From IMG/VR virus record IMGVR_UViG_2778261161_000002: 64,000 nucleotides of DNA, one strand, 5' to 3'. The DNA is from a virus. Its lineage: Duplodnaviria > Heunggongvirae > Uroviricota > Caudoviricetes. Positions within the stretch are counted from its first letter, which is position 1. Each line of letters begins with the position of its first letter. Made by a program: the position numbers and the translations under genes. A model generated the notes under the pieces. That model had not been told where the DNA came from and searched no databases. It saw only the letters and a program-made list of their open reading frames with translations. Shown piece after piece: positions 8,483 through 44,761 of the stretch.

Positions 8483-8500
8483 TCGCCTTGTTAAGTTAAA

Positions 8501-8509
8501 TTTCTAACA
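8501..8509 (+). promoter_or_regulatory. Operator-like motif TTTCTAACA (copy 1)
   Basis: aaaTTTCTAACAtagtg upstream of ORF 8683. Confidence 0.5.
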
Positions 8510-8599
8510 TAGTGTATTTATATACACTGTTGATCCTGGTGGATGGGATCGAGTAGGATCGCGGTCACTGCTCCGGTAGCGACTGCCAAAAAAGCAAAA

Positions 8600-8620
8600 G
8601 CCGCTGAGAAGCGGCTTTTT
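8600..8620 (+). terminator. Rho-independent terminator GCCGC-tgagaa-GCGGC + T5
   Basis: Hairpin plus T-run read directly. Confidence 0.7.
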
Positions 8621-8682
8621 GGGTGTATAAATCCACTGCCATAGATTTATACGGTAGATAGATTTTTTCACGGAACTATCTG

Positions 8683-9645
8683 GTGAGTATTTTAAATTCA
8701 GTTTCAGTAACTTTCAACACTTCTGAGTATAAAAACAACACTGAATACCACAAAAAAATCAAAGGTCATCAGTTGAGTTTTTTTGCTCGTCATAGCGGTC
8801 TTCTTTCCCCTTCACATAGCGCCATTATTGCCGAGTTCGCCAACCTGGCAGGGTCTACCGATGAATACATGATCCGTCGCTCATATGCTGATATGTCCGA
8901 GATTACAGGACGCAGCATTTCTACTGTGCGCCGGGCATTTGCTGAAGCGACGAAGTGCGGAATGCTTGTTAAGCAACATCAGGTAGCGAATAACAATGCC
9001 CAGGTGTGTAACGTATATCGGTTTACGACACAATTTCTCCACTTCATTCATGTAGCAATGGAGATAGGGGGTAAGCAGGGCATCAAATTTGCCAACGCCA
9101 CAAAGCTGGTTAAGCAATTGATTTCAAAGGTACGTTATTTTTTTGAAACTGGGAACCCCCTGTTCAAATTGAACAAGTCCCCCCATGTTCAAAATGAACA
9201 GCCAATAGAAAATAAGAGTCACTCTATAGCCAAAAGAAGAGAAAGATCATGCGCGGTTCAGCCAAAGGCTTCACCAGCAGATAGTACTCAAGCGGATAAT
9301 GGGGGACTGGATAAAAAAACAGTAATCAGGGAAGAACATACCAACCACTGCCTGGCGGCGGCAAAAGCGAGAGCTGCAAAGCGTCGTTCAGACGAGGGGC
9401 ACGCAAAACGGCAGGCTCTGTATCGTACCGCTGAAAAGCTGGCAAAAAAATTTGCATGGATACGTAGTGCCGCTACCGCAGTGAATAAGCCTAAACAATC
9501 CAGTGCCCTGGATTTCTCAATGGATTATTCTGGCTCCCAGGGGTGTGTAACCATTGGTGAAGCCTTTGACCTGATGAAACAACGTGGCTATCGGTCTGAA
9601 TTTGACCGGGAGGATTGGTCAATCCCTGCGGGATTTAGGGGATGA
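8683..9645 (+). CDS. HTH DNA-binding protein, possible replication initiator (RepL-like position)
   Basis: HTH-like segment MSEITGRSISTVRRAFAEATKCGMLVKQ; operator-like motif upstream; palindromic repeats inside ORF. Confidence 0.35.
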   Translation: MSILNSVSVTFNTSEYKNNTEYHKKIKGHQLSFFARHSGLLSPSHSAIIAEFANLAGSTDEYMIRRSYADMSEITGRSISTVRRAFAEATKCGMLVKQHQVANNNAQVCNVYRFTTQFLHFIHVAMEIGGKQGIKFANATKLVKQLISKVRYFFETGNPLFKLNKSPHVQNEQPIENKSHSIAKRRERSCAVQPKASPADSTQADNGGLDKKTVIREEHTNHCLAAAKARAAKRRSDEGHAKRQALYRTAEKLAKKFAWIRSAATAVNKPKQSSALDFSMDYSGSQGCVTIGEAFDLMKQRGYRSEFDREDWSIPAGFRG

Positions 9646-9699
9646 CCTGTGTGTCTACAAAGCATCCCAATGATCGGAAAATGCTCGCTCGATGATTTG

Positions 9700-9708
9700 T
9701 GTTAGAAA
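9700..9708 (-). promoter_or_regulatory. Operator-like motif (copy 2, reverse orientation)
   Basis: ttgTGTTAGAAAAtt upstream of first immI-like module. Confidence 0.5.
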
Positions 9709-9929
9709 ATTAATTTGCTGTTTCTAAATCGGAATGTATGATCTGCATCATCGACTGAAGTCATCCATTGCTGAAATTTTTAGTTGATCTTCCATGTTTT
9801 CAGGCTTATATTCATGCCGTCGTAGCAAATTCTGCGACCAGGTTTGACAGCCTGAATGTTAGTGCGGACAACCGCAGATTTCCGATATTGCGGTATTTTT
9901 GTGTCCGTAAACCGCGTTACGCCCGAATT

Positions 9930-10030
9930 ATGGTGGGGCGTGATGGGGAGGCTTCGGCCTGCTGGTCTCACTAACGCCAGTCTGTCAACCCTGTCACGTC
10001 CTGCCACCTGTTTGACAGCGGGTAGCAGGT
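9930..10030 (+). ncRNA. Candidate c4-like antisense RNA region of immI module 1
   Basis: Direct repeats GTTTGACAGC at 9842 and 10010 flank a complementary CTGTCAAC at 9982, upstream of icd-like ORF; architecture as in P1 c4. Confidence 0.3.
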
Positions 10031-10058
10031 TGTTAAACCTGTTAGTGAGGCCGTAACT

Positions 10059-10283
10059 ATGGTTAATGCCAATCCTTGCTCACGTCCAGAATTCATCTGG
10101 CGTTTCCACTCCCTGCAAAAACACTGCGATCACTTCGCAATTGCCGCAACCGAAAAAGAAGCCCGTTCTCTGATCCCTGATCAGCATGGTGTTCTTACTG
10201 GTCGTTTCTCTACTTCCCCACAACCAAACACTAATCCCTGGTATCGCAATATTACCAATCCCGGCATTGCGGAGGCACACTGA
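10059..10283 (+). CDS. icd: Icd-like cell-division inhibitor, 74 aa
   Basis: Small ORF with EFIWRFHSLQKHCDHFAIAATEKEARS immediately upstream of and overlapping ant-like gene; paralog at 50053. Confidence 0.55.
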   Translation: MVNANPCSRPEFIWRFHSLQKHCDHFAIAATEKEARSLIPDQHGVLTGRFSTSPQPNTNPWYRNITNPGIAEAH

Positions 10284-10990
10284 TGGATATCTGCATTCTT
10301 GAAAAGCCATCAATGACCAGCATTGAGATCGCGGAGCTGGTGGGAAAACGTCATGACAATGTGAAGCGTACCATTGAAACATTAGCCGAATCCGGCGTTA
10401 TTGTTCGTCCTCAAATTGAGGATGAACCAAAAATAGATGTAATGGGGCGTTCTCGATTAATTCAGGTGTTCCGATTTAGCGACGAGCAAGGCAAACGAGA
10501 CAGTATCATTGTAGTCGCACAGCTTTGTCCTGAGTTTACTGCCCGGCTGGTGGACCGCTGGCGCGAACTGGAAGAACAAGTACGCCAGCCGTTGACCGAA
10601 ATAGAGATGATCGCCGCAATGGCTGCAAATGCAGTTCAGCAGCAAAAGCGGCTTCATGCTGTTGAGTCAAAGGTTAGCCAGGTCGCTGAAACCGTCGAGC
10701 AAATCAAGAAGGGCAATATGCCAGATGGTTACATTGGCTACCGCCAGCTGGCGGCGAAATGCGGCCTGACTGAAGCCAAATGTCGCAACCTTGTCAACGC
10801 TTACCGGATTCCCACCGATACACATGAGTTTTTAACTCCAGAGGGGGTATTGTCGCGTCGTTCCATCGTGGCCTTATCTCCCTTCATGAATGCTTTTAAC
10901 CGGATGATGTCGGAGGCTGAACACCGAGGAAAACGCTGGTATCACCCCAAAATGGGGCAATTCCAGGTGATCGGTTGGGGAGGTGAGTGA
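10283..10990 (+). CDS. ant: Antirepressor-like protein (Ant-like), 235 aa
   Basis: ATGA-coupled to icd-like ORF; shares conserved blocks GKRDSIIVVAQL.PEFTARLVDRWRELE and MP.GYIGYRQLAAKCGLTEAKCRNLVNAYRIPTDTHEFLTP with ORF 50268. Confidence 0.55.
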   Translation: MDICILEKPSMTSIEIAELVGKRHDNVKRTIETLAESGVIVRPQIEDEPKIDVMGRSRLIQVFRFSDEQGKRDSIIVVAQLCPEFTARLVDRWRELEEQVRQPLTEIEMIAAMAANAVQQQKRLHAVESKVSQVAETVEQIKKGNMPDGYIGYRQLAAKCGLTEAKCRNLVNAYRIPTDTHEFLTPEGVLSRRSIVALSPFMNAFNRMMSEAEHRGKRWYHPKMGQFQVIGWGGE

Positions 10991-26441: not shown

Positions 26442-27802
26442 GTCTGGTTAATTGGGAGGAGCACCGCGCCCGCTTTATAGCGTTGCGTGAAGAAAAAGGG
26501 ATCACTGTAAAGGAATACTGTGAGGAGCATGGCCTTAGCTTCAATACAGCCAGAAAGCATCTCAATATGAAAAAAAATGAGGTGCGGTCGCAGGTAAAGA
26601 CAACAAAAAAAAGCACCAAATCACCTGAAAAAAAACGGGCGGGAAGAGCAACAAAAAAGCTGGAAGAGGGCGCAGAAAAAACAAAATTTACAGAAATTGA
26701 CAATTCGCAGGGTGCAGGTTCTTTCCGAAGTATGCCAAGAAAGAAAACTCCGGATCATGAAAGTAATACCAATAATAACAATGAGATAAAAGAATCTGTC
26801 AGGAGATCATTGCGCGAAAAAATGGCGAAAATGATCCCCGAAGAAGATAAAAGCGCCCCAAAAATTGAGGGATCTTCAGCAATGATCCCTGGCGGTGCTG
26901 TGCAACGTGCCACATTGCCCACTACGAATGTGGCTCGCGACATGATGAAGAACGGCGCAGAAGAACACCTGCGGTTAGCAATTCAAATGGCGCAAGAGCG
27001 CGCACTTCAGTATCAAAGCATTGTTGATCAGGAGGCCGAACGTCTACAGGCGGAAATAGACGCCTTGGGCGATAAAGAGCCAGAAGGAATGCACCCTGGG
27101 CAGCGCCTTCTCGGTCTAATCAGTGACGCGGCCTACTACATGAATGATTTTATCAGTAGGTTGGCAGCTATATATCAGTCCGAACAAAAGCTGCGACAGG
27201 GGGATGAAAAGCTTCGTCAGAGCGCTCGCCAGCAAGCATTCAAAGAGGCTGAGGCCAGAGAAAAACTCGAATTAGCACGCCTACAGGCCGAACAGCGTGG
27301 CAAAGAGATTGAATATCGCATTGGCGCTGACGCACGCGCAGCCAGAGTTATCGCCGCCGCTATACGTATGCGTGAGCGCGAGGAACTGGATGATATCGGT
27401 GTTGCTGAATACATCGAGCGCCAGGGGGTCAGCGTCCCGGCTATCCTCGCGGCGCGCGCGGCGAAAGCTATCACTCTTCTCGAACCACCTGTTTCTGACG
27501 TCAATGATGTTGATGATGAACAGCTGGACAAAGAGGCAAGGGAGTTTGCGACGCTTCAGGCTAACCATCCGCAATGGCTGGCAGAGCGCCGGGCGGATGT
27601 GGCAACCATTGTTGAAGAATTGGGGTGCGGAGATTACGACCGCAATGGCGAGCGTAAAGCTGGAGAATTCGAGGCCAACGACGAAGAGCTGGATATTGAC
27701 CCTTCGGCAACGGCTGAAATTTACGGTGATTATGATGCATCTGATGCAGGGTATGACGCCGGAGATGATGATATCGCGATAGAACCGCCGGAGGATGATT
27801 AA
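26438..27802 (+). CDS. pacA: Terminase small subunit PacA-like, 454 aa, acidic C-terminus
   Basis: Position upstream of and coupled to PacB-like ATPase; basic N-terminus, acidic tail DASDAGYDAGDDDIAIEPPEDD; contains GATC cluster. Confidence 0.55.
   Translation: MSLVNWEEHRARFIALREEKGITVKEYCEEHGLSFNTARKHLNMKKNEVRSQVKTTKKSTKSPEKKRAGRATKKLEEGAEKTKFTEIDNSQGAGSFRSMPRKKTPDHESNTNNNNEIKESVRRSLREKMAKMIPEEDKSAPKIEGSSAMIPGGAVQRATLPTTNVARDMMKNGAEEHLRLAIQMAQERALQYQSIVDQEAERLQAEIDALGDKEPEGMHPGQRLLGLISDAAYYMNDFISRLAAIYQSEQKLRQGDEKLRQSARQQAFKEAEAREKLELARLQAEQRGKEIEYRIGADARAARVIAAAIRMREREELDDIGVAEYIERQGVSVPAILAARAAKAITLLEPPVSDVNDVDDEQLDKEAREFATLQANHPQWLAERRADVATIVEELGCGDYDRNGERKAGEFEANDEELDIDPSATAEIYGDYDASDAGYDAGDDDIAIEPPEDD
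26750..26890. other. Candidate pac (packaging cleavage) site: 5 GATC sites in about 135 bp
   Basis: GATC at 26753, 26805, 26833, 26871, 26884 in contexts GGATCA, AGATCA, TGATCC, GGATCT, TGATCC. Confidence 0.45.
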
Positions 27803-44068: not shown

Positions 44069-44761
44069 TCAGACTTTAAGCTGCCCTCCCTTCACCTGCA
44101 TTAGCGTCAGATTTCCGCAAAAAACCGCGCCCGTGTCTATGTAGTGCTGATTCCAGTATGCTTTTGGTCTTCGTACCGGTGTGTGCCCAAAGATAAAGCG
44201 ATCTGCGCCTGTAATTTCTCCACCAATGCCATCTATCGAATCACCGACGCGACTGCGCGACCAGACAACATCAAAAAGCGACACATCCTTACCGAACTGG
44301 TACTCTCCACCTGGATAGTCGGCATGGGCTATAACGATAGTTTCATGCCCGGTGTTCAACTCAATGATATATGGCAGACGCTTTACCAGCTCCACCAGCG
44401 CCCTGGCTAATATTTCCTGATCAGCGTCCAGCATGAAGAACCATTGTCCGCCATTCATTAGCCAGTTATTCACGTTGCCATCAGGACTTAACGCATCGAT
44501 CATTAATCGCTCGTGGTTTCCCATAACCGACCGAAACCAGGGCATCTGCAATAGCTCCAGGCATTCAACATTTTCGGTGCCGCGATCGATAAGGTCGCCA
44601 ACCGATATCAGTAAATCCTGCGCCGGGTCAAAATCCACACGATGGAGTTCGGACATCAGTCTGGTGTAGCAACCATGCAGATCACCAACAACCCATATGT
44701 TTCTGTAGCCAGAACCATCAATACGGCTATATAAATTCACTTCATGCATAGCCTGTGTCAT
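44069..44761 (-). CDS. Ser/Thr protein phosphatase (lambda PPase-like metallophosphatase)
   Basis: GDLHGC, GDLIDRG, GNHE motifs. Confidence 0.8.

Follow-up and report, generated by a model that had tools for sequence, protein, structure and literature searches.

Paired dyad boxes inside repL of a phage D6-like plasmid prophage are probable RepL-recognised elements of its lytic origin

Why would the gene for a replication initiator carry two nearly identical palindromes within its coding sequence? The question is raised by a locus in the window, by which we mean the whole 64-kb stretch of viral DNA analysed here. A first-pass annotation had pointed to two such palindromes, 11 bp apart, inside a RepL-like open reading frame and had suggested an intragenic origin of replication or an autoregulatory site. 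Both palindromes are present. Box 1 (TGTTCAAATTGAACA, 9161-9175) reads TGTTCA-AAT-TGAACA and box 2 (TGTTCAAAATGAACA, 9186-9200) reads TGTTCA-AAA-TGAACA, each consisting of perfect 6-bp arms (TGTTCA/TGAACA) around a 3-bp spacer. The position originally given for box 1 is correct; box 2 starts one nucleotide earlier than had been thought (at 9186, not 9187), and the measured gap between the boxes is 10 bp. Within 9150-9210 the sequence reads tgggaaCCCCC-TGTTCAAATTGAACA-agtCCCCCCa-TGTTCAAAATGAACA-gcc. C-run and box together thus make up a 20-nt direct repeat, CCCC(C/A)TGTTCAAA(T/A)TGAACA, with a period of 25 bp. Both boxes lie within the open reading frame 8683-9645 on the plus strand, at codons 160-173, and belong to the following units:

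9156-9175, no strand assigned: unit 1, made of the C-run 9156-9160 and box 1; frame offset 1 (peptide LFKLN)
9179-9200, no strand assigned: unit 2, made of the C-run 9179-9184 and box 2; frame offset 2 (peptide VQNEQ)

The pattern TGTTCANNNTGAACA has two exact matches in the 64-kb window, namely box 1 and box 2, against 0.0045 expected by chance after adjustment for composition, so the pair is far beyond what chance would produce. In about 29 kb of phage D6 outside the window, no copy with up to one mismatch was found. Elsewhere in the window, the sole one-mismatch relative of the boxes is TGTTGATGATGAACA (27508-27522); with about 0.14 such matches expected by a rough calculation, it is probably a chance occurrence. 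Upstream of box 1, a further inverted repeat is split between TTTCAAA (9122-9128) and TTTGAAA (9142-9148); it looks like the inner box halves (TTCAAA/TTTGAA) and is partly kept in the Escherichia fergusonii locus L003. This could be a third site that has degenerated, or merely a T-tract similar to the AT1 element of phage P1.

The open reading frame that houses the boxes encodes a true RepL homologue, as the first-pass annotation had presumed. It is 97% identical to orf20 of Escherichia phage D6, annotated as 'lytic replication protein, similar to P1 repL', and 28% identical to P1 RepL, with the match to the latter covering 92% of the length (tblastn E ~1e-17, BLASTP E 5e-30). The 98%-identical cluster P0001 is assigned to Pfam family PF26868 (Phage_P1_RepL), as are all the relatives, and phrog_2418 is common to the window and P1 proteins. 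In an AlphaFold2 model for which 19 homologues were used and whose overall confidence is mediocre (mean pLDDT 64), residues from about 20 to 160 form a predicted N-terminal winged-helix domain with a MarR/ArsR-like fold (pLDDT 80-92 throughout this block save one short dip), residues 162-215 a predicted disordered linker (pLDDT below 50) and residues 217-265 a predicted long C-terminal helix. Residues S78, T81, V82, R84 and A85 of the recognition region are invariant. The boxes and the adjoining AT tract (codons 173-189) occupy the beginning of the predicted linker, a segment that, given its predicted disorder, would be best able to tolerate a sequence imposed by the DNA.

The window is a D6-like plasmid prophage; its region 8500-10100 is 96.8% identical to phage D6. 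Its RepL has a best plasmid match of 99.7%, and at 95% identity or above RepL is found in more than 100 plasmid records. Upstream of repL come portal and head-protease genes and then a terminator-like hairpin; directly downstream lies a P1-type immunity region (9800-10990). The elements around the boxes are:

8596-8619, no strand assigned: terminator-like hairpin AAAAGCCGCT-GAGA-AGCGGCTTTT between pro and repL, kept across RepL clades
8626-8649, no strand assigned: inverted repeat ATAAATC-N10-GATTTAT directly upstream of repL
8683-9645, plus strand: repL, lytic replication initiator of 320 aa, assigned by RepL homology
9806-9858, strand not given: c4-a1b1 targets (Rfam)
9926-10011, strand not given: C4 antisense RNA (Rfam)
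10059-10283, strand not given: icd, downstream of repL
10283-10990, strand not given: Rha/winged-helix antirepressor, downstream of repL

The hairpin marks the predicted left boundary of the repL transcription unit. The inverted repeat at 8626-8649, which is probably what the first-pass annotation had called an operator-like motif, bears no sequence relation to the boxes; in the 65%-identical RepL locus of E. fergusonii (L003) its arms are kept and its spacer differs. It could be a repressor operator or a promoter element for repL. A P1-type lytic replicon has an upstream promoter under the control of the repressor C1, with transcription running through the origin; in the window, a consensus scan of the plus strand upstream of repL found no sigma-70-like promoter. 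Rfam matches were confined to C4 and its c4-a1b1 targets downstream, with no known RNA family at the palindromes.

Several other features of this neighbourhood deserve mention in their own right. Just past the stop codon of the head-protease gene and ahead of the conserved hairpin, the block 8500-8560 contains TTTCTAA..(A)GTGTATTTATATACACTGTTGATC..GGTAGGATC, which is kept even where RepL is only 34% identical; in it lie the near-palindrome AGTGTATTTATATACACT and, within 30 bp, three GATC sites (8532, 8547 and 8557). The sequence AGTGNATTTATAYAC occurs at 8511-8525 and 8623-8637 in inverted orientation, flanking the hairpin. A third copy with one mismatch (44727-44741) lies within a metallophosphatase open reading frame and was set aside as probably due to chance. 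Despite divergence in the rest of the phage, identity to P1 reaches 97% over 9799-10100, a stretch that takes in C4 and the first part of icd.

P1 offers the natural reference, since its lytic origin, oriL, is annotated within repL, with annotations that invoke DnaA and IHF sites. The minimal P1 fragment sufficient as a target for RepL supplied in trans is the 89-bp T5 (Huan, Brown and Wang 2023, PMC9948254), given in the supplement of that paper as ccccctcccccTGTCAGGATGACgtggcaataaagaataagaagtcacaagttaaaaaaacaaaaagatcagtttCCGGCggtGCCGG. According to the same study, RepL is the only P1 protein needed for T5 replication; synonymous recoding of the 43-bp A/T-rich AT2 (repL nt 495-540) abolishes RepL-driven amplification, and neither AT1 nor the annotated DnaA and IHF sites are required (PMC9948254). 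The authors note only 'a cytosine/guanine rich sequence' before AT2, to which they assign no role, report that purification of RepL has not succeeded and describe both the mechanism of RepL and the precise sequence of oriL as unknown; their paper makes no use of the words palindrome, inverted repeat or iteron (PMC9948254).

We found that P1 repL just before AT2 reads cacccccaTGTCAAAATGATAccccctcccccTGTCAGGATGACg, that is, two units of a C-run and an imperfect dyad, 24 bp apart. In a codon alignment the window boxes coincide with P1 CCCCCA-TGTCAAAATGATA and CCCCC-TGTCAGGATGAC, and AT2 comes next. The second P1 box, TGTCAGGATGAC, which is the positional counterpart of window box 2, lies inside T5, so that T5 comprises P1 box 2, AT2 and a GC palindrome. 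P1 box 2 is in all active fragments (T2, T4 and T5), and the inactive T1 and T3 are without both units and without AT2. P1 box 1 is dispensable.

Around the boxes, the window has the following elements at the positions of P1 counterparts:

9133-9148, plus strand: T-rich stretch GTTATTTTTTTGAAAC just upstream of box 1, at the position of P1 AT1
9201-9249, plus strand: A/purine-rich tract (66% A+T, 70% purine on the plus strand) that aligns with P1 AT2
9255-9275, no strand assigned: weak GC-rich inverted repeat GGTTCAGCC-AAA-GGCTTCACC with 9-bp arms and 2 mismatches, a tentative part of the element

The extent of the AT2 homologue, 9201-9249, follows from the window/P1 alignment after box 2, where the window has gCCAATAGAAAATAAGAGTCACtctatagccaaaagaagagaaaGATCatgc and P1 has gGCAATAAAGAATAAGAAGTCACaagttaaaaaaacaaaaaGATCagtt. 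Within it, CAATAGAAAATAAGAGTCAC matches CAATAAAGAATAAGAAGTCAC of AT2, and both tracts share CAATA(G/A)A(A/G)AATAAGA..GTCAC and a terminal GATC, at 9245-9248 in the window. The window tract is a candidate DNA-unwinding element homologous to AT2, its A+T content being 66% as compared with about 80% for AT2 (PMC9948254). At the boxes there is no DnaA box, IHF site or oriC-type 13-mer; the only candidate, GATCTTTCTCTTC (9236-9248, minus strand), resembles such a 13-mer with two mismatches and lies where the tract ends. The inverted repeat at 9255-9275 occupies the place of P1 TTCCGGCGGTGCCGGAA, the right end of T5, and most RepL clades have a GC-rich inverted repeat 57-69 nt after box 2, the exceptions being L003, L095 and L096.

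The two replicons have a homologous initiator and the same two GC-run and dyad units, 24-25 bp apart with a TCA-N3-TGA core, followed in the same order by an A/purine-rich tract ending in GATC and a GC-rich inverted repeat. They differ in that the window boxes are 15 bp long with perfect 6-bp arms (TGTTCA) and a 25-bp period that puts the copies in different frames, whereas the P1 boxes are 13 bp long with imperfect 5-bp arms (TGTCA/TGAYA) and a 24-bp period. Unlike P1, the window has no DnaA box beside unit 1, no IHF site and no kilA upstream, and the gene order is reversed, with repL upstream of c4-icd-ant in the window and downstream in P1. Two defining features of a P1-type RepL/oriL replicon, the homologous initiator and the A/T-rich tract inside repL, were found in the window element, which points at the sequence level to membership of that type. 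We found no description of paired dyad boxes with a TCA-N3-TGA core in the literature searched; older P1 papers, including the 2004 genome paper, and the D6 genome paper lay outside that search.

We then asked how widespread this arrangement is among RepL loci. Protein-cluster look-ups, viral contigs, genomes (two loci) and metagenomes yielded 160 loci. The core TCA-N3-(T/C)GA followed by a purine/AT-rich tract is at the same position in the gene in 157 of them, and the other three are truncated. The 157 loci span clades of 25-36% protein identity with differing genomic contexts. Every clade fetched has one or two GC-run and dyad boxes, 24-25 bp apart when there are two, with an A/purine-rich tract directly after. 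The clades, with their identity to the window RepL, boxes and period, are:

D6-like (window), 95-100%: CCCCC TGTTCA-N3-TGAACA in two copies; period 25 bp
E. fergusonii type (L003, L028), 65%: D6-like arms with spacers AAA and TGA; period 25 bp
Enterobacter-type D6 relatives (L004, L005, L007, L029, L091), 32-36%: CGGTC TGATCA-N3-TGATC(A/G) in two copies, all spacers differing; period 24 bp
P1-like (about 100 loci), 28%: TGTCA-AAA-TGATA and TGTCA-GGA-TGAC; period 24 bp
Plasmid-borne clade beside zeta-toxin/Rep_3 genes (L093-L096), about 30%: TGTCAAAGTGATA / aGTCAAAATGACA, or TGTCAAAATGAgc / TGTCAAAATGACA; period 24 bp

One member of the last clade is a natural variant. In L096 (1977-1991; compare L095, 1977-2015) one 24-bp unit has been lost by an 8-codon deletion, and a single perfect box, CTGTCAAAATGACAG, is kept. 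This agrees with the P1 T5 result that one box together with the AT tract is enough. As a separate observation, the Enterobacter-type boxes (L004, 2016-2049; L005 and L007, 1935-1968; also L091) read TGATCA-N3-TGATCA and place four Dam (GATC) sites within 40 bp of the putative origin, so that methylation or SeqA could gate RepL binding in that clade. The window boxes contain no GATC.

The boxes appear to vary together with the protein. Recognition regions of the form GRS(I/V)STVRRAF go with TGTTCA, N(I/T)S(V/E)GTVRRAI with TGATCA and GYSxSTV(V/L)RAF with TGTCA. From this we infer that the outer box bases vary in step with the winged-helix recognition residues, a correspondence that extends over three or four clades only, and that the invariant TCA/TGA core would match the invariant recognition residues.

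Are the palindromes conserved as DNA or merely as a consequence of the encoded peptide? The arms and the spacers behave very differently within each clade, as seen from the numbers of invariant positions:

D6 clade: arms 24/24, spacers 3/6, rest of gene 67%
Enterobacter clade: arms 22/24, spacers 0/6, rest of gene 45%
P1 clade: arms 15/20, spacers 3/6, rest of gene 34%

Third codon positions are invariant at 18 of 22 sites in the arms as compared with 249 of 896 elsewhere (Fisher p = 3e-7). Among about 40 D6-like sequences, variants occur in the spacers (AAT to TTT; AAA to AAT) and flanks, never at arm bases. No change is seen in the arms of box 1 across all D6-like loci or in the 65%-identical homologue from E. 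fergusonii, while the spacer of this box is AAT, AAA or TTT. Spacer codons change the amino acid freely, as in SDQ-G/P/H-DQ and SDH-D/L/A/S-DR. According to the first-pass annotation, loss of the palindromes from homologous genes that keep the same protein sequence would speak against a role for them; the outcome is the opposite, the arms being kept even where the protein sequence has changed. These patterns show that the palindrome arms are kept by selection on the DNA itself.

The same data bear on the idea that the palindromes arose by chance or merely reflect a peptide motif repeated in the protein. Where the period is 24 bp, the peptide is indeed repeated as well (PPCQND/PSPCQDD in P1 and RSDQxDQ/RSDHxDR in the Enterobacter type), and window VQNEQ, encoded by box 2, is the same-frame counterpart of P1 CQND. 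However, because the window period is 25 bp, its two copies are read in different frames and yield the unrelated peptides LFKLN and VQNEQ, which makes the repeat a feature of the DNA and not of the peptide. Together with the frozen synonymous positions of the arms amid varying spacer codons, this rules out a peptide repeat as the explanation, and two adjacent copies are hardly reconcilable with the chance expectation given above; we regard this account as having next to no likelihood. A role through DNA structure, either as a cruciform or as a single-strand hairpin serving as a priming or nicking signal, appears highly unlikely. The two units can pair as a 14-bp hairpin, and the single-strand DNA fold is strong in the window (-11.8 kcal/mol, z = -5.1) and in the Enterobacter type (z = -3.5), but the P1 region, for which function has been demonstrated, is no more stably folded than shuffled sequence (-4.4 kcal/mol, z = -0.8). 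Since folding is strong in the window and not in P1, the conserved property is sequence and not structure: across clades it is the TCA-N3-TGA core that is kept, not the stability of a stem, and L096 has one unit only. The hairpin or cruciform was accordingly rejected as the conserved feature.

It is also improbable that the boxes serve only as an autoregulatory operator or roadblock, bound by RepL or another phage repressor, with the origin residing in the AT tract alone or elsewhere. Dyad-symmetric sites are typical of operators, the MarR/ArsR-like winged-helix fold of RepL would fit such a role, and feedback could be useful given that high RepL activity is reportedly toxic (PMC9948254). Yet in every clade the AT tract directly adjoins the boxes, the minimal P1 replication target includes box 2, and no box copy is near the promoter or elsewhere in the genome, which is why we do not favour an operator as the sole role; autoregulation, as proposed in the first-pass annotation, may still be a second one. 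The lack of further copies in the window or the rest of D6 likewise led us to reject a dispersed operator regulon. A low probability also attaches to the possibility that the boxes belong to the origin but have a binder other than RepL, be it a host factor or a different protein of the phage. The DnaA and IHF sites invoked for P1 oriL would speak for such a binder. However, the boxes contain no DnaA, IHF or LexA site, P1 RepL alone is sufficient for T5 replication, and box sequence and length change with the RepL clade. In particular, the boxes of P1-type elements are not those of D6-type elements even though E. coli hosts both, a difference that favours a cognate binder encoded by the phage over a host factor. 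A LexA (SOS) box, CTGT-N8-ACAG, was considered separately and rejected: the boxes read CTGT-N9-ACAA and ATGT-N9-ACAG, there is no match within 9161-9200 even with one mismatch, and the TGATCA arms of other clades also contradict this reading.

We therefore return to the origin. The palindromes are likely to be the RepL-recognised cis-acting boxes of the lytic origin oriL, embedded in the linker-coding part of repL. Their alignment just upstream of P1 AT2, with P1 box 2 inside the 89-bp target, lends support at the sequence level to the intragenic origin proposed in the first-pass annotation. RepL made from the same gene would bind both TGTTCA-N3-TGAACA boxes through its N-terminal winged-helix domain, probably as one dimer per box; the dyad symmetry of the boxes suits a winged-helix dimer. 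Bound RepL may then destabilise the adjoining 45-50 bp A/purine-rich tract at 9201-9249, after which the host replisome would be loaded for theta replication. One box beside the AT tract is probably enough, and the second probably adds cooperativity.

In its layout, the element resembles the origin of phage lambda, which has dyad repeats about 20-24 bp apart inside the gene of its own initiator, O, in the same orientation. There, the repeats are followed by an A/purine-rich tract on the coding strand (ACAAAAGACACTATTACAAAAGAAAAAAGAAAAGATTATT; acacaaaagacactattacaaaagaaaaaagaaaagattatt) and then by an inverted repeat; the counterpart tract in the window and its relatives is CAATAGAAAATAAGAG / ACAAAAGAAAAGAAGAC, followed by the weak GC inverted repeat. 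Lambda O consists of an N-terminal domain that binds DNA and a C-terminal domain, joined by a linker, and the lambda origin and oriL both require transcription in cis. On the other hand, lambda has four iterons, bound by O dimers, as compared with two boxes in the window and one in some relatives, and the box sequences are unrelated. Lambda also has a P-like helicase loader, and there is none downstream of the window repL, where C4 RNA, icd and the Rha-type antirepressor are found instead. Comparison of the RepL profile with lambda O by hhalign gave a probability of 0.7%, and there was no match to Pfam Phage_rep_O; a weak match (E 2.6e-7) was to phrog_391, a heterogeneous PHROG named 'replication initiation O-like'. 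As homology to lambda O is unsupported, the likeness is one of working in a similar way, not of membership. An iteron plasmid of the Rep_3/RepA type, which has at least three direct 17-22 bp iterons outside rep, was rejected as a model: here there are two units, they are intragenic, no DnaA box accompanies them and RepL has no Rep_3 domain. Origin repeats within the rep gene are a feature of the RepA_N-family initiators of Firmicutes plasmids (pSK41/pAD1 type).

What the boxes mean for the family follows from their variation. Because the outer bases differ (TGTTCA in D6, TGATCA in the Enterobacter type, TGTCA in P1) around the invariant TCA-N3-TGA, the boxes are probably what gives P1-like and D6-like elements residing in one cell their separate replicon specificities. 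Going further, and tentatively, the RepL family might consist of lambda-O-like 'O-some' initiators whose specificity comes from the outer box bases and two or three winged-helix residues, such that the D6, Enterobacter-type and P1 pairs would be naturally orthogonal and would decide lytic cross-activation of co-resident phage-plasmids. If this is true, orthogonal sets of origin and initiator could serve as inducible controllers of copy number that act independently of one another.

An intragenic lytic origin in the RepL gene and the annotation of D6 orf20 as RepL were already known; what appears to be new, as judged from the literature searched, is the family-wide pair of dyad boxes with frozen synonymous sites. 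It provides a candidate for the RepL target across the family, a TCA-N3-TGA dyad box directly before the essential AT tract, with the D6 type using a box different from that of P1. What RepL recognises would thus become a simple question of mutagenesis and footprinting. The boxes would also help genome annotation by placing the lytic origin in D6-like phage-plasmids, elements often found in E. coli and in Salmonella.
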